Below, piece after piece: positions 1 to 7,332 of a stretch of DNA of 7,332 nucleotides. Source of the DNA: a virus (taxonomy: Duplodnaviria > Heunggongvirae > Uroviricota > Caudoviricetes); IMG/VR virus record IMGVR_UViG_2706794686_000014. One strand, 5' to 3'. The stretch's first letter is position 1, and each line of letters opens with the position of its first letter. The notes beneath the pieces were generated by a model. The model saw nothing but the letters and a program-made list of their open reading frames with translations. It made no database searches and was not told where the DNA came from. The position numbers and the translations under genes were made by a program.

Positions 1-824
1 TGTTTGATGACCGTATTTATCAGATGACTAATGGCGTTAAAGCTGCCGACCGTATTATTTACACTGTCATGTTGAATGAACAAAAGTTTTATCACGATAA
101 GGGGCAATATTATACCCCTTCATATGCTCATCTTGGTCAGTATGCTGGAATCACAAGAACATCCGTGATTGCATGTATGAAACAACTTGAGGCACATGGT
201 TTAATCAAGAAAACTAACGTTGCAAGCAATCAGTGTGTTATTAAAGTTTATTCACTTGATGAAGTACCGGAGGTTTTAACAGAGCTTACAGCTAAGGAAG
301 CCAGAAAGGCAAAGCTGGAGTCTAAAGTTACTCAGTCAGTCAAGAAAGATGACCCACTGAGTCAAAATTCTTTACCCACTGAGTCAAAATTTTTTACTCA
401 GTCAGTCAAAATCTTTGACACGTATAATAACAGTAATAACAAGAAAGAACTTATTAATAACAATAAAGAAGATGACTTTGAAGAAGAATATTTTAAGAAG
501 GGAGCTTCGCTCTGTGATTCACATGAATGTGATTCTCTTGGTATTGAAGAGGCTATTANNNNNNNNNNNNNNNNNNNNNNNNNNNNNNNNNNNNNNNNNN
601 NNNNNNNNNNNNNNNNNNNNNNNNNNNNNNNNNNNNNNNNNNNNNNNNNNNNNNNNNNNNNNNNNNNNNNNNNNNNNNNNNNNNNNNNNNNNNNNNNNNN
701 NNNNNNNNNNNNNNNNNNNNNNNNNNNNNNNNNNNNNNNNNNNNNNNNNNNNNNNNNNNNNNNNNNNNNNNNNNNNNNNNNNNNNNNNNNNNNNNNNNNN
801 NNNNNNNNNNNNGAACAAGGTTAG
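1..824 (+). CDS. Replication initiator-like protein (lambda O-type, winged helix-turn-helix N-terminal domain); 5' partial, 3' end uncertain because of N block 559-812
   Basis: The frame is open from the window edge through the first ATG at 24, which has no Shine-Dalgarno, so the true start is probably upstream. The N-terminal region (YTPSYAHLGQYAGITRTSVIACMKQLEAHGLIKK) looks like the HTH DNA-binding domain of phage replication initiators. Iterons and an AT-rich tract lie inside the ORF, as in lambdoid O genes. With the N block taken at face value the frame stops at 822-824. Confidence 0.55.
   Translation, partial: FDDRIYQMTNGVKAADRIIYTVMLNEQKFYHDKGQYYTPSYAHLGQYAGITRTSVIACMKQLEAHGLIKKTNVASNQCVIKVYSLDEVPEVLTELTAKEARKAKLESKVTQSVKKDDPLSQNSLPTESKFFTQSVKIFDTYNNSNNKKELINNNKEDDFEEEYFKKGASLCDSHECDSLGIEEAIXXXXXXXXXXXXXXXXXXXXXXXXXXXXXXXXXXXXXXXXXXXXXXXXXXXXXXXXXXXXXXXXXXXXXXXXXXXXXXXXXXXXXEQG
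328..410. repeat. Iteron-like direct repeats inside the replication gene (candidate origin of replication)
   Basis: TTACTCAGTCAGTCAA occurs perfectly at 328-343 and 394-409. CCCACTGAGTCAAAATT occurs perfectly at 353-369 and 375-391, spaced 22 bp (about two helical turns). All four copies share an AGTCA(A) core. Confidence 0.6.
415..500. other. AT-rich tract next to the iterons (candidate DNA-unwinding element)
   Basis: Strongly A/T-biased stretch (e.g. cgtataataacagtaataacaagaaagaacttattaataacaataaagaag) immediately 3' of the iteron array. The frame-1 ORF the track opens at 415 is most likely an artefact of this tract. Confidence 0.45.
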
Positions 825-948
825 TGACCTCGATGACTTTGATGATAGTGACGATGATTTTACTTTTACACCAAAAAAGAAAACTCACACCGAGCCAAAG
901 AAAGAAAAAGTTAAAGTCAGACGTGTTTATGGTGGAGGAATGTTTTAA
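813..948 (+). CDS. 3' end of a frame-1 ORF of unknown function whose start is hidden in the N block; could instead be the C-terminus of the replication protein if the block length is not exact
   Basis: Open frame leaving the N block and ending at TAA 946-948, encoding an acidic stretch (DLDDFDDSDDDFTF) then a basic tail (PKKKTHTEPKKEKVKVRRV). Its stop overlaps the next start (TAATG). Confidence 0.4.
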
Positions 949-1244
949 TGAAAACTTATAATGGCGAGAGAAAATACCGTGACTATTTACTCAGACGTTA
1001 CAGCATTTCTCGTGAAGGTTACTTGATGAAAGATACTCACGGGGAAGTTTACCGGATTCGACCGAAGAAAGAAGGGAGGGATTATTATTTCGTCGATGAT
1101 GTGACAGATTTAAAGATTGACGCTTTGAAGTTTGCGGTGCTGTATCATTACGATTTATGGGATTCAGTCCACCAGCTACGATTAAAAGACGGTGACCCCG
1201 GTAATCTGAGGGCCACCAATATTATCAAGGGAAAGTGCCGGTAA
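948..1244 (+). CDS. HNH-family endonuclease (phage-associated, 98 aa)
   Basis: ATG 948 overlaps the upstream stop (TAATG) and is preceded by GGAGG at 934-938. The C-terminal HQLRLKDGDPGNLRATNI stretch matches the H...DG(D)...N...N spacing of HNH/HNN nuclease cores. Confidence 0.5.
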   Translation: MKTYNGERKYRDYLLRRYSISREGYLMKDTHGEVYRIRPKKEGRDYYFVDDVTDLKIDALKFAVLYHYDLWDSVHQLRLKDGDPGNLRATNIIKGKCR

Positions 1245-4238: not shown

Positions 4239-6419
4239 ATGAGCAAATTCACAGTTGATAGTTTTATCGTTGAACTTAGTTTCAGTGAAAACGTTATTAA
4301 GGGCTTGCAAAGAGTTGAAAAGGCAGCTTTGCAGTCAGCACAAAGAATTGAACGCAATTTGAATAGAGCGTTTAAGGTCGATACCAAGCAACTTGACAGC
4401 AATCTGACAAGTTCTTTAGGGCAGCTTGAAAGGAAGTTTAATAAGACCTTTGACAAGATTGAGCAGAGAGCAAGAAGCACAAAAGCATTTCAGTTTGCCA
4501 CCAGATTTAATGACACTGTTAATCCTCCAAAACAATCAAGGCAACCACGAATTAGCGGAAACAGAGCAATCACAGCAGCGCATAGCGTGAATATGTCTAA
4601 GCTTGGTGATATTAATCCGCTGATGGCTAAAATGTTTAAAGCACAGTATTACAGCTTAAGCGGTAAGGCTGGTAATATTGGAAGTGAAAAGTTTAACGCT
4701 GAACTTGCAAAATTAAATCAATCTCTTCGTGAAACGTTGAATAAACTCAGGTCACAGACAAAGACCGCCAGCATTAACAATACAAGCGACGCATTTAATA
4801 ATCTTGCAAGCAATGCGATTAAATTATCTGGTGCATTTTACTCTGTGATGGGTGCTCTTAACGCTTACAAGGCCATTATGAATGCAGGTCTTAAACGAGA
4901 TTCCGCACAGAGAGCCGCTAAGTTTGTACTTGGTGATAAAGCATCTGAAGCTGAGGTATTTATTCGAAATTTAGCAGACAAGACAGGTCTTAATATCTCT
5001 GAAGGGCTATCAAGCTACGCTAAGTTTGCAGCAGGTGCTCAGGGTTCTATGTCACAGGAACAGACACAGGAGCTATTTGGTAATGCAACGGCTATGAGTC
5101 GCTTAATGGGGCTTTCTAACGATGAGCTAAACGGCATTTTGAGAGCATTTGAGCAGATGGCGAGCAAGGGCAAGATTCAGGCTGAGGAATTACGTGGGCA
5201 GTTAGGTGACCGTATGGCTGGTGCATTTAAGCTATTCGCTGAAGCATTGGGTATGACTGCTACAGAGCTTGATGCAGCCATGAAAAACGGGAAGGTACTT
5301 TCCGCTGATACTCTCCCTAAAGTCGCTAAACAGATGGGCTTGATGATTGATAAAGCGGGTGGCTGGGCTGAAGTCACTAAGAGCACTCAGACAGCTTTAG
5401 GTAAGTTAGCAAACAATTGGGATGATACGATGGTGAAAATCTTCTCAGGTTCACAGGATGAGCTAAACGGCTTCTTATCCAGCCTGAGTAACCTGCTTAG
5501 TGAAATGGGGATGAGTTCTTCTATCGCTGGTGATGCTATCGGTGGACTTATCGACATGCTTAAAGCTGGTGTAGATGATATTCGCGTATTCAATAACACC
5601 ATTGAAGGCTGGATTTTACAGACTAAGAAGTTCTATTACAGCCTTGATGACACTAAACGAAAACTACTTGATGAAGTCGGTGATGGTTTTATCAACTTCG
5701 TCAAAGGTCTTGCTATAGCGTTATCTGCAAAGACGCTATTCAGTGCTACTACAGGGGTTATGAACCTGACAAGAGCAATCACAACGTTAGGTACAAGAGC
5801 TAATCAGGTGGCTGGTCAGGTAGCTACTGGTAAAGGTGGTGGAAAACTGAAAGGTGTAGCTGGTGGTGTAGGTAGTGCTCTTGCAATTGGTTATGCTGAT
5901 GACGGTTATGAAACAGCGTTAGCATTAGCTTCAATGATTCCACAAATCAGAGGCGTCACTCTTGGTTTATATGCATTGAAGAAAGCACTGGATTTTATGA
6001 ATCAGGAAGTAGTCAAAAACGCTAATATGCATCCGTCTGGGGTAGGTGTGGGTAGTGACTTTAATCCCGTGTATTCTGGTGACCCTAATAAACCGAATAT
6101 GATTAACGAAGGATGGAGTAGAATTTTTAGTTCAATGGGTGAATTGTTTAACAATGCCACAATGAATATTGCAAGATTCAATCATCCAGAGTTAAACAAC
6201 ATTAAGCAAGATTCAGCATTAACGAGTGCAGATATTCAGGGTCTGAGGGATGAAATTAGTGCTTTGAGTAAGCGTATTCAGGAGCCAGTGAAAGTTTCAC
6301 TTGGTGGTCAAGTTGTCGTTCGACCAGATGAACCATCTTTCTTTACTTTCAATCAATCAGCTAATGACCAGTTCACGCAGGATATGCTCTTAAGTTCAAG
6401 CTATCCAGAGGAAGAATGA
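4239..6419 (+). CDS. Phage tail tape measure protein (726 aa)
   Basis: SD AAGAGGTG at 4223-4230, 8 nt before ATG 4239. Long helical N-terminal region. The central stretch SRLMGLSNDELNGILRAFEQMASKGKIQAEELRGQLGDRMAGAFKLFAEALGMTATELDAAMKNGKVLSADTLPKVAKQ matches the conserved tape-measure domain. A glycine-rich hydrophobic segment (GKGGGKLKGVAGGVGSALAIGYA) follows, typical of these proteins. Confidence 0.85.
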   Translation: MSKFTVDSFIVELSFSENVIKGLQRVEKAALQSAQRIERNLNRAFKVDTKQLDSNLTSSLGQLERKFNKTFDKIEQRARSTKAFQFATRFNDTVNPPKQSRQPRISGNRAITAAHSVNMSKLGDINPLMAKMFKAQYYSLSGKAGNIGSEKFNAELAKLNQSLRETLNKLRSQTKTASINNTSDAFNNLASNAIKLSGAFYSVMGALNAYKAIMNAGLKRDSAQRAAKFVLGDKASEAEVFIRNLADKTGLNISEGLSSYAKFAAGAQGSMSQEQTQELFGNATAMSRLMGLSNDELNGILRAFEQMASKGKIQAEELRGQLGDRMAGAFKLFAEALGMTATELDAAMKNGKVLSADTLPKVAKQMGLMIDKAGGWAEVTKSTQTALGKLANNWDDTMVKIFSGSQDELNGFLSSLSNLLSEMGMSSSIAGDAIGGLIDMLKAGVDDIRVFNNTIEGWILQTKKFYYSLDDTKRKLLDEVGDGFINFVKGLAIALSAKTLFSATTGVMNLTRAITTLGTRANQVAGQVATGKGGGKLKGVAGGVGSALAIGYADDGYETALALASMIPQIRGVTLGLYALKKALDFMNQEVVKNANMHPSGVGVGSDFNPVYSGDPNKPNMINEGWSRIFSSMGELFNNATMNIARFNHPELNNIKQDSALTSADIQGLRDEISALSKRIQEPVKVSLGGQVVVRPDEPSFFTFNQSANDQFTQDMLLSSSYPEEE

Positions 6420-6514: not shown

Positions 6515-7320
<806 letters not shown>

Positions 7321-7332
7321 TTTGGCATCCAT

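Follow-up and report, generated by a model that had tools for sequence, protein, structure and literature searches.

A probable replication origin within its own initiator gene in an integrative element of Escherichia coli and Shigella

Origins of replication embedded in the gene of their own initiator are already known from phage lambda and from the plasmid pSK41. In ori-lambda, four iterons occupy codons 117–145 of the O gene and an A/T tract lies behind them; in Stx phages there are six iterons, so that iteron number varies and the extra peptide is tolerated (PMC7466680). The pSK41 Rep protein has 319 aa, and its gene carries four Rep boxes in a central position, where the origin encodes a dispensable linker; in the chimeric gene of pPR9, the N-terminal domain and the origin were exchanged while the C-terminal domain was kept (PMC5703833). 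The iterons of RepA_N initiators are semi-palindromic, with arms that converge on a poly-A, and the structures 4PTA and 4PT7 are those of RepA proteins of Staphylococcus aureus plasmids (PMC7145576). RepA_N-like initiators are rare in Gram-negative bacteria, and the RepA protein of PLE, a phage satellite of Vibrio cholerae, is reported as the first to be functionally characterised there. This initiator, of the RepA_N type, comes from an integrative element of a Gram-negative host whose integrase is of the large serine recombinase type, and 4RO3 is the structure of its N-terminal domain (PMC7145576).

We analysed a stretch of 7,332 nucleotides from the IMG/VR virus record IMGVR_UViG_2706794686_000014 (the window), the features of which are collected in Table 1. 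Our analysis makes it likely, with good confidence, that positions 328–482 constitute the vegetative (theta-type) origin of an integrative element of about 11.5 kb, placed inside the gene of the element's own initiator. The comparative evidence indicates that the region is probably an origin; iteron binding and replication are predicted from it.

Table 1. Features of the rep locus in the window and iteron arrays of the rep alleles
Feature	Position in window (strand)	Size or array	Sequence	Remarks
rep, winged-helix initiator gene	1..948 (+)	317 codons		Open frame, PHROG, AlphaFold2, Foldseek
Iteron 1	328..343 (+)		TTACTCAGTCAGTCAA	Gene codons 115-120
Iteron 2	350..365 (+)		TGACCCACTGAGTCAA	15-bp core TGACCCACTGAGTCA, an imperfect palindrome
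Iteron 3	372..387 (+)		TTACCCACTGAGTCAA	
Iteron 4	394..409 (+)		TTACTCAGTCAGTCAA	Same sequence as iteron 1
A/T-rich tract, A-rich strand; presumed DNA unwinding element	416..482 (+)			GC, AT skew, stability
Start of conserved 3' rep module	478..558 (+)			Inter-allele DNA similarity begins; encodes EEE..KKGASLCDSHECDSLGIEEAI
98-codon ORF	948..1244 (+)	98 codons		ATG overlaps rep stop codon by one base
Array of allele 1		4 x 22 bp		
Array of P0121 (81% identical)		4 x 22 bp		Diverged version
Array of allele 2		3 full copies + half copy x 23 bp	ACCCAACCAGAATTTGGTTACCT	
Array of P0130		4 x 22-23 bp	AGTGACAAAATGTCA	
Array of P0134		3 x 23-24 bp		
Array of P0136		4 x 22-23 bp		
Array of P0138		2 x 21 bp	CCGATTAAACAAAGTTTAA	

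The first base of the window is nucleotide 17 of rep, and the frame is open from base 3. Near-identical copies encode the full 317-aa protein (P0001, 99% identical), which starts with MEKFHM upstream of the window. Bases 559–812 of the window are masked with N and the rep frames before and after this stretch differ by one base, so that the window copy may not be intact. Rep matched the PHROG category "replication initiation protein / O-like / DnaD-like" with E values of 2e-11 to 1e-5, and all of its significant PHROG matches are replication initiators. Pfam yielded weak generic HTH matches, and DnaD_N reached E 0.0019, below its cut-off. An AlphaFold2 model built on a 12-sequence alignment predicts a winged helix at residues 8–100 (pLDDT 85–94) and disorder at residues 125–244 (pLDDT below 50). 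The top Foldseek matches of the predicted fold were the initiator or Rep–DNA complex structures 4PQL, 4PT7, 4PTA, and 5KBJ (probability 1.00, E 3.5e-5 to 9.5e-4 within the top ten). The fold also matched 4RO3, with a TM score of 0.68–0.69 and an rmsd of 3.3–3.6 over 113 columns, and 4RO3 was the best PDB sequence match of the Rep family profile (E 1.8e-4). These profile matches and the predicted RepA_N-like fold agree with the preliminary description, which had placed the repeats in a replication gene. Within rep, the start of the conserved 3' module carries two copies of TGTGATTC 15 bp apart (repeat D12). The 98-codon ORF follows rep in all E. coli/Shigella-type loci examined; a family search gave no match for it, and its product is possibly an accessory factor.

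The four iterons follow one another in uniform steps of 22 bp. The outer pair (iterons 1 and 4) shares a perfect 16-mer at a distance of 66 bp, and the inner pair shares a perfect 18-mer (352–369 and 374–391) 22 bp apart; the preliminary description had given the outer length and the spacing correctly, but had taken the inner repeats for 17-mers. The core that it gave as AGTCA lies within coding sequence in each iteron and can be extended to AGTCAA in all four. Tandem Repeats Finder described the array with a period of 22, 3.0 copies, and a score of 95. Of all periodic arrays in the window it ranks first, with 77% of positions matching over three periods, a value reached by none of 200 first-order Markov nulls (mean 0.58, sd 0.033, maximum 0.73). 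The pattern ACYCASTSAGTCAA, with up to two mismatches, occurred seven times, always within 330–409, against 0.29 expected, and none of 200 shuffles reached seven. Three of these matches are on the minus strand because the iterons have partial dyad symmetry; in TGACCCACTGAGTCA, for example, 12 of the 15 positions are self-complementary by eye.

Since 22 bp is not divisible by three, the repeat is read in three frames, and the successive iterons (frames 1, 2, 0, and 1) encode TQSVK, PLSQN, PTESK, and TQSVK. A protein-level tandem repeat is ruled out by this reading. The peptide TQSVKKDDPLSQNSLPTESKFFTQSVK given in the preliminary description agrees with the actual translation, and the predicted disorder covers the segment encoded from just past iteron 1 through the whole A/T tract. 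The three reading frames and the location of most encoded residues in a predicted disordered region uphold the earlier proposal of a constraint on DNA rather than on protein. Several other assignments of the array were considered and rejected. A predicted terminator at 350–364 on the minus strand is merely the palindromic iteron 2, and the three promoter sites predicted in 1–1600 do not exceed the 4.0 expected by chance. If the small serine recombinase encoded nearby were an invertase acting on the array, its crossover sites would be inverted, a geometry that four direct copies 22 bp apart do not have.

The array is directly followed by an A/T-rich tract, as had been noted earlier, and the stability calculation revealed that this tract includes the weakest duplex of the window. 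The GC content is 20–25% across 421–500 and 39% in the window overall, and the AT skew of the tract is +0.33 to +0.38. By nearest-neighbour free energy, positions 423–482 (20% GC), which are coding sequence, have the lowest stability of any 60-mer in the 7.3 kb (−63.0 kcal/mol, against a window mean of −76.2 with sd 4.0; z = 3.3). The tract contains 9-bp units of the AACAGTAAT type and the motif AACAAGAAAGAACTT. This motif is common to the distant alleles P0121, P0134, and P0136, and in P0136 it stands in another reading frame. For DnaA, the window has only one 1-mismatch site, at 5548, and no box within or close to the origin; a DnaA-dependent origin was rejected. For IHF, no site was found within 300–560; the nearest 1-mismatch site is at 228–240, and the count in the window is not above chance.

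The comparison of relatives supports an origin. Seven lineages, with 22–81% protein identity to the Rep of the window, carry their own, differing arrays of 21–24 bp periods at the same rep codons, each followed by an A/T-rich tract (Table 1). The 70 nt after every listed array have a GC content of 0.21–0.33, and the 40-mer of lowest GC in rep lies at gene positions 421–439 in five of the listed alleles. The arrays of P0134, P0136, and P0138 were found by repeat search, and the three-tandem-unit statistic was not above its null for them because the spacing varies by 1 bp or only two copies are present. No array was found in P0137 and P0139, two of the most distant relatives. The proteins of alleles 1 and 2 share 43% of their residues in the N-terminal domain, 25–27% in the origin-coded part, and 61–83% in the C-terminal part. 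In blastn, only gene positions 491–929 of the two rep alleles align (84% identity), and Megablast matches of the window to other alleles start at 469–477. The N-terminal domain, the iterons, and the A/T tract have thus been swapped as one module between the two E. coli alleles.

The number of iterons also differs between genomes, being 3, 4 (the usual number), or 10. No length change over the array was seen in 23 of the 27 allele-1 genomes, and both of the two inspected have four copies. Strain RM9088 has three iterons, and its rep is annotated as frameshifted (pseudogene). The ten iterons of MDR_56 (+132 bp, in frame) leave the ORF intact, with 363 aa, and in strain 2013C-4830 the A/T tract is expanded by 18 bp. 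The preliminary description had proposed comparing repeat number with domain conservation in related rep genes; with 3, 4, or 10 repeats, the protein domains are unchanged. Such variation might also be expected of a passive, slippage-prone tandem repeat that sits in a tolerant disordered linker and has no function at the DNA level, since copy number shifts by unequal recombination, the A/T tract too expands by 9-bp units, and the encoded region is predicted to be disordered. A passive repeat, however, is not expected to be rebuilt in seven lineages with new sequence, similar period and copy number, and the same position. Nor would one expect of it the reading in three frames, the dyad symmetry, or the linkage to the N-terminal domain in one exchange module, and we regard this explanation as very improbable.

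Each iteron type is restricted to its cognate rep gene among 18 loci, including loci of 24 kb and 40 kb; no iteron copy was found in the promoter region of about 380 bp or elsewhere in the loci. This distribution bears on the possibility that the array is an operator or another regulatory site, from which a MarR/SlyA-like transcription factor, bound within the gene that encodes it, would act as a roadblock or an autoregulator, with the A/T tract being incidental. MarR/SlyA-type regulators are numerous among the lower-ranked Foldseek and PDB sequence matches of Rep, its Pfam matches are limited to the weak generic HTH families, and initiators that bind iterons commonly autoregulate as well. Nevertheless, the top fold matches and all the significant PHROG matches point to initiation, a promoter without iterons is not what an autoregulator suggests, and the least stable DNA always comes after the array. 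Four phased sites in mid-gene, at the codons used in lambda and pSK41, also suit an origin better, and we therefore consider a regulatory site unlikely.

The probable origin belongs to an integrative element of E. coli/Shigella with tail genes related to those of Felix O1-like phages, which are used in biocontrol and therapy. It encodes a homologue of their baseplate protein (75% identity) and a full-length homologue of their tape-measure protein (29% identity), and was found in approximately 1.3% of complete E. coli genomes (70–71 of 5426). These relatives of phage tail genes raise another explanation, namely that the array is an origin-like decoy that titrates or misdirects replication or packaging proteins of a helper phage, or a pac-type site. 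Packaging sites often lie inside small-terminase genes, and the element looks satellite-like. Ectopic copies of an origin can reportedly arrest phage growth (PMC4488673). On the other hand, the iteron sequence covaries with the element's own N-terminal domain, which suggests that the element's own protein is the binder, and neither Pfam nor PHROG gave terminase-like matches for Rep. A tblastn search with the 317-aa Rep found no match in 50,697 phage records or 72,556 plasmids; the phage records thus contain no initiator whose N-terminal domain resembles that of Rep and which the array could titrate. Taken together, a decoy or packaging site appears improbable.

The element was missing from every phage, plasmid, and viral-contig collection that we searched. 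Positions 1–558 gave no match to the 50,697 phage records in blastn (distant mode), and no relative was found among IMG/VR viral contigs searched with the window protein, P0130, P0136, and P0134, or among GTDB species-representative genomes searched with the family alignment. The seven small ORFs of the window, concatenated, had no tblastn match in phages, and a 236-aa ORF annotated as "transposase" had neither a phage match nor an NCBIfam family. In the literature, our searches gave nothing relevant on the element itself or on satellites of Felix O1-like phages. A tentative reading, possible rather than probable, is that the element represents an undescribed E. coli/Shigella family of PLE-like phage satellites of about 11.5 kb that parasitise virulent Felix O1-like myoviruses, and that initiation at the origin inside rep begins only once infection has taken place. 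The features that would make the family PLE-like are the large serine recombinase integrase, the RepA_N-like initiator, and the lack of capsid and terminase genes. If this is true, replicon specificity, or incompatibility between elements that share a cell, would depend on the exchangeable module made up of the N-terminal domain, the iterons, and the A/T tract.

For the probable origin, we propose the following mechanism. Dimers of the N-terminal winged helix (about residues 8–120) would bind the four partly palindromic iterons of 15–16 bp. Since 22 bp corresponds to about two helical turns, the four iterons would lie on one face of the DNA. The resulting nucleoprotein complex, aided by the A-tracts after iterons 2–4, may then strain and melt 416–482, and the conserved acidic/basic C-terminal half may recruit replisome proteins, helicase and primase included, of the host or of a helper phage. 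Among the genes of the element, none was recognised as coding for a helicase, a primase, or a loader. Because the peptide encoded by the origin is predicted to be mostly a disordered linker, the DNA would be free to evolve as a binding array. The element presumably replicates after excision. In complete E. coli genomes, all 71–72 matches lie on the chromosome and none on a plasmid; therefore, autonomous replication, if any, must be transient.

The claim of a probable origin inside a replication gene was thus strengthened by the phased array, the weak duplex, the conserved position with variable sequence, and the module swap. Since lambda and pSK41 already show this layout, the origin is a further example and not a new principle, but it would bring RepA_N-like initiators with origins inside the gene to the Enterobacteria. 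It also locates the replicon of this small mobile element, a possible satellite of Felix O1-like phages. The natural allele series, in which seven or more iteron specificities, a sharp boundary of the module, and variants of 3, 4, and 10 copies occur, offers material for studying the co-evolution of winged-helix initiators and iterons.

In iteron plasmids of the Rep_3 type (pPS10, F, R6K, and RK2-like), the iterons lie outside rep together with DnaA boxes. In contrast, the iterons described here are inside rep and have no DnaA box nearby, and Rep_3 was absent among the listed Pfam matches of Rep. The comparison with PLE covers the RepA N-terminal domain, the recombinase type, and the iteron location. 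Both the family profile and the predicted fold of Rep match 4RO3, and the element ends in a 506-aa serine recombinase, comparable to the large serine recombinase of PLE. Replication of a PLE-type satellite requires infection by one particular lytic helper phage; for the element described here, the homologues of Felix O1-like tail genes are circumstantial evidence of such dependence. The PLE iterons, however, are in the non-coding NCR3 and not inside repA (PMC7145576).

The lambda-like arrangement that had been proposed is confirmed in its geometry: four dyad-symmetric iterons lie in the initiator gene at codons 115–144, compared with 117–145 in O, with an A/T tract that has an A-rich strand immediately behind them, and iteron number varies between relatives in both systems. 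Both proteins also match phrog_678 and phrog_345 over their N-terminal parts, which is the sole, indirect link between them. In contrast, Rep and lambda O have no pairwise similarity (BLASTP E 2.4), PF04492 (Phage_rep_O) is absent among the Pfam matches of Rep listed at E up to 0.1, and P0001 has no match to the families of the O C-terminus (phrog_2357, and phrog_391 over its C-terminal part). No P-like helicase-loader gene was recognised, the downstream gene being the unrelated 98-aa ORF, and the regular spacing of 22 bp differs from the 20, 24, and 23 bp of lambda.

The likeness to pSK41 extends further. Rep has 317 aa (319 in pSK41), with a predicted DNA-binding winged helix in about its first 120 residues and a central linker encoded by the origin, followed by a separate C-terminal domain (PMC5703833). 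The four iterons, at codons 115–144 of 317, are central in rep like the four boxes of pSK41, and the swap of N-terminal domain and origin with retention of the C-terminal part resembles that in pPR9. pSK41 uses antisense RNA control. In RepA_N initiators (among them those of pSK41, pTZ2162, and pAD1), the C-terminal domain binds a protein of the host replisome, DnaG. For a dispensable linker in Rep, the predicted disorder of residues 125–244 and the intact ORF with ten iterons are indirect evidence. The best PDB fold matches include the S. aureus plasmid RepA structures, and the iterons of allele 2 (AACCA-AAAAT-TGGTT), P0130 (TGACA-AAA-TGTCA), and P0138 (TTAAAC-AAAG-TTTAA) are inverted repeats around a poly-A centre. 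The iterons of allele 1 are without the central poly-A typical of RepA_N iterons; the dyad TGACCCACTGAGTCA has its A-tract on the 3' side and not inside. Further differences are the absence of PF06970 (RepA_N) among the Pfam matches listed at E up to 0.1, a C-terminal half that is unrelated in sequence to that of pSK41 and mostly predicted to be disordered, and the setting in a Gram-negative chromosomal integrative element instead of a Firmicute plasmid (theta plasmids of Staphylococcus and Enterococcus). Since Rep is not demonstrably a member of the lambda O family and is nearer to RepA_N, the term "lambdoid" describes the arrangement and not the ancestry. On the predicted fold, the closest structural relatives of Rep are the RepA_N initiators, whose pSK41 prototype has its origin within the gene.

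Our analysis revealed four direct repeats within rep, spaced exactly 22 bp from start to start. This confirmed the preliminary description, which had reported such repeats at this place and proposed an origin of replication at 328–500. The outer two, iterons 1 and 4, are identical 16-mers. The inner two, previously described as perfect 17-mers, do form a perfect repeat, and its length is 18 bp. Tandem Repeats Finder assigned the array a period of 22 and a score of 95. By a periodicity statistic it is the top periodic array of the 7.3 kb, with 77% of positions matching over three periods, a value reached by none of 200 first-order Markov sequences (mean 0.58, maximum 0.73). The consensus ACYCASTSAGTCAA, with up to two mismatches, occurred seven times against 0.29 expected, always within 330–409. 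Its matches on the minus strand indicate that each iteron unit is partly palindromic; 12 of the 15 positions of TGACCCACTGAGTCA are self-complementary (counted by hand).

The rep reading frame is open from base 3. Near-identical Rep proteins of E. coli and Shigella sonnei, including P0001 (99% identity), have 317 aa and start with MEKFHM just upstream of the window, so that window base 1 is gene nucleotide 17. In this numbering, codons 115–144 hold the iterons and codons 144–166 the A/T tract. Pfam gave weak generic HTH and DnaD_N matches, all below the cut-offs, and PHROGs gave replication-initiator families (‘replication initiation protein’, ‘O-like’, ‘DnaD-like helicase loader’) with E 2e-11 to 1e-5. 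An AlphaFold2 model built from a 12-sequence alignment predicted a confident winged helix at residues 8–100 (pLDDT 85–94), a helix at 103–119, disorder at 125–244, and one more helix at 250–273. The earlier placement of the repeats in a linker-like part of the protein agrees with this model: residues 125–166, encoded by iterons 2–4 and the A/T tract, are predicted to be disordered, and iteron 1 encodes the end of the 103–119 helix. A peptide repeat as the explanation of the array was ruled out, since 22 bp is not a whole number of codons and successive copies are read in different frames (1, 2, 0, and 1 for copies 1–4, giving TQSVK, PLSQN, PTESK, and TQSVK).

An A-tract (GTCAAAAT) directly follows each of iterons 2–4, and downstream of the whole array lies a tract of 20–25% GC with an A-rich top strand. 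The weakest 60-mer of the window by nearest-neighbour energies falls here (−63.0 kcal/mol; mean −76.2, sd 4.0). It is coding, and by the ORF list most of the stretches that rank next in weakness fall between genes or at gene edges. The motif AACAAGAAAGAACTT in the tract is common to allele 1 (the window's type of rep), P0121, P0134, and P0136. In some alleles it encodes NKKEL, and in P0136 EQERTF. In alignment, identity to the window's protein is only 26% for P0134 and 25% for P0136. The retention of the motif in such distant alleles, with differing translation, again indicates constraint at the DNA level. In strain 2013C-4830, the tract is 18 bp longer through two more 9-bp AACAGTAAT units (L018 1676–1710, corresponding to window 427–443); thus, the presumed unwinding element is also length-polymorphic.

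Features of the window and iteron arrays in relatives of rep
Feature	Position in window	Copies and period	Sequence or remark
Iteron 1	start 328		TTACTCAGTCAGTCAA
Iteron 2	start 350		TGACCCACTGAGTCAA
Iteron 3	start 372		TTACCCACTGAGTCAA
Iteron 4	start 394		TTACTCAGTCAGTCAA
18-mer common to iterons 2 and 3	352–369, 374–391
A/T tract	416–482
Weakest 60-mer	423–482
TGTGATTC pair	513–540	2, 15 bp apart	around small palindrome ATTCA-CA-TGAAT
Tail-related parts of element	4239–6419, 7009–7320
Tandem repeat	7277–7330	2.3 × 23 bp	TGGCATCCGAATCGATCACAATT; TRF score 66
GATC sites	7290, 7313
P0121 array		4 × 22 bp	diverged version of the window's iteron; protein 81% identical (phmmer search)
Allele 2 array		3 full + 1 half copy × 23 bp	ACCCAACCAGAATTTGGTTACCT; protein 43% identical in N-terminal domain
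P0130 array		4 × 22–23 bp	AGTGACAAAATGTCA
P0134 array		3 × 23–24 bp	GGTGAGTCCTGAAGACACA
P0136 array		4 × 22–23 bp	CTACACCTCT(G/C)A(A/G)AGCAC
P0138 array		2 × 21 bp	CCGATTAAACAAAGTTTAA

The variation in repeat number among relatives that the preliminary description had proposed as a check was found, and it supports the reading of the segment as an origin. Among 27 genomes with allele 1, 23 match the query without length change over the array, and both genomes fetched from these carry four iterons. Four are also present in 2013C-4830, whose length difference lies in the A/T tract. In RM9088 exactly one 22-bp unit is missing, and its rep is annotated as frameshifted. MDR_56 carries ten copies; the array has grown by 132 bp, as two 66-bp blocks each holding three units, which keeps the frame and leaves a 363-aa ORF intact. 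In JNU, the match reaches query position 230 only. A neutral slippage repeat fits the array less well than an origin does.

The Rep family is very small: searched exhaustively with phmmer, 1.84 billion representatives yielded only 19 proteins at E ≤0.001. The DNA of diverged members and of other E. coli alleles was fetched as loci and compared. Seven relatives carry arrays of similar period and different sequence at the corresponding position of their genes. Most of these arrays have dyad symmetry, the 70 nt after every one have 21–33% GC, and in five genes the lowest-GC 40-mer lies at gene positions 421–439. No array was seen in the genes of the distant relatives P0137 and P0139. In the 18 fetched loci, including one of 40 kb and one of 24 kb, each iteron type is confined to its cognate gene. 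An array serving as an operator, or as a decoy or pac-like site, fits less well than an origin.

The proteins of allele 1 and allele 2, a diverged E. coli type, share 43% identity over the N-terminal domain, 25–27% over the origin-coded part, and 61–83% over the C-terminal part. The DNA of the two genes is unalignable before gene position 491 (window 475) and 84% identical from there on. This pattern indicates that the exchanged unit comprises the N-terminal domain, the iterons, and the A/T tract, and their swapping together is as would be expected if the domain reads the iterons.

On the basis of anatomy, co-variation, and fold, the segment is most probably the theta-type replication origin of the element. 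The variable arrays at the same place, the module exchange, and the copy number provide independent comparative support for the interpretation first proposed. In the mechanism we infer, dimers of the N-terminal domain would fill the four sites, which are spaced in phase by two turns of the helix, and the nucleoprotein complex would bend and strain the DNA. The adjoining A/T tract would then melt, and the C-terminal half of Rep would bring in replisome proteins. No helicase, primase, or loader was recognisable in the element. In the C-terminal half (window 814–948), a basic tail, KKKTHTEPKKEKVKVRRVYGGGMF, comes after a conserved acidic motif, DLDDFDDSDDDFTF; the motif is kept across the E. coli/Shigella-type sequences aligned (P0001, P0121, P0126, P0130, and loci L003–L006). 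The acidic motif presumably resembles the acidic C-terminal tail of SSB, and could be a docking site for replisome proteins.

Ahead of the masked N run (559–812), rep codons start at positions divisible by 3; beyond the run, a codon starts at 814, so that the two frames are one base apart. The gap 558–813 measures 256 nt in the window, where P0001 has 82 codons. Either this copy of rep is frameshifted, or it has another length in the variable acidic region, or the mask is not true to length. The TGTGATTC pair encodes the invariant CDSHECDS and lies within the first stretch of rep kept in DNA between alleles; it is either a DNA element flanking the origin or simply a protein motif.

The rep gene is present in 70–71 of 5426 complete E. 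coli genomes, always on the chromosome. In MRE162, the element is ~11.5 kb long and lies between yciI and tonB (L007 17400–29050). It encodes, in order, a small serine recombinase, a DNA N6-adenine methyltransferase, Rep, ~7 small ORFs, a 236-aa ORF annotated as ‘transposase’ without family or phage match, a tape measure protein, a ‘baseplate’ protein, and, at its end, a 506-aa serine recombinase. The chromosomal site varies by strain, mdtG being interrupted in FDAARGOS_944 and RM9088. The FDAARGOS_944 element carries IS911 in the tape measure gene and an ISEc12 copy after the baseplate gene. GATC is strongly avoided in the window (2 sites against 21.6 ± 4.4 expected from dinucleotide shuffles), despite the methyltransferase gene just upstream of rep (L001 10942–11604). 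Both sites lie inside the 23-bp tandem repeat, which is part of the baseplate-like gene and reaches the window edge.

The annotation of the element shows no capsid, portal, or terminase gene. Its baseplate-like protein has 74–75% identity over 98% of its length to a Felix O1-like lytic myovirus protein, and its tape measure protein 29% identity over the full length to the Felix O1-like counterpart. Rep and the small ORFs had no match in the phage collection searched, the element family was absent from the viral-contig collection searched, and no description was found in the literature searched. The element may be an undescribed PLE-like satellite or tail-interference island. In combining borrowed tail genes with a RepA_N-like initiator and a large serine recombinase, the element recalls PLE with its lytic helper ICP1; that it is a satellite of this kind we consider possible, if less likely than not.

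The feature draws its interest chiefly from its host element, which is uncharacterised, and from the specificity alleles that occur as a natural series, rather than from the layout of the origin. The feature is probably an origin of known architecture, with iterons inside the gene as in lambda and pSK41. In lambda (J02459), four annotated iterons at O codons 117–145 precede an A-rich tract with 25% GC, a placement nearly identical to that in rep. The lambdoid origin lies in mid-gene and varies in iteron number, with four in lambda and six in Stx phages (PMC7466680). In contrast, Rep shows no pairwise similarity to lambda O (BLASTP E 2.4), the two having only phrog_678 and phrog_345 matches in common. 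No counterpart of the lambda P-binding C-terminal domain was recognised in Rep, nor a P-like gene in the element.

In predicted fold, the initiator appears closest to RepA_N proteins and PLE RepA. The best PDB matches (4PQL, 4PT7, 4PTA, and 5KBJ; E 3.5e-5 to 9.5e-4 among the top ten) are, by their descriptions, structures of a DNA-binding N-terminal domain, of initiators, and of a Rep–DNA complex; 4PTA and 4PT7 are pSK41/pTZ2162-type S. aureus plasmid RepA proteins (PMC7145576). The RepA N-terminal domain of the Vibrio cholerae satellite PLE, 4RO3 (PMC7145576), matches the predicted fold with TM 0.68–0.69 and is the best sequence-level PDB match of the Rep family profile (E 1.8e-4). PF06970 was absent among the Pfam matches listed for Rep at E ≤0.1; thus, the grounds for RepA_N membership are architecture and predicted fold rather than a curated sequence model. 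The iterons of allele 2, P0130, and P0138 are arms around a poly-A centre, just as described for RepA_N iterons (PMC7145576). The RepA_N prototype, pSK41 Rep, has 319 aa, binds four Rep boxes central in rep, and contains an origin-encoded, dispensable central linker; pPR9 is a natural chimera in which the N-terminal domain and origin were exchanged and the C-terminal domain kept (PMC5703833). Judged from sequence and predicted structure, the rep gene described here appears to reproduce each of these points: the size, the central boxes, the origin-coded linker, and the exchange.
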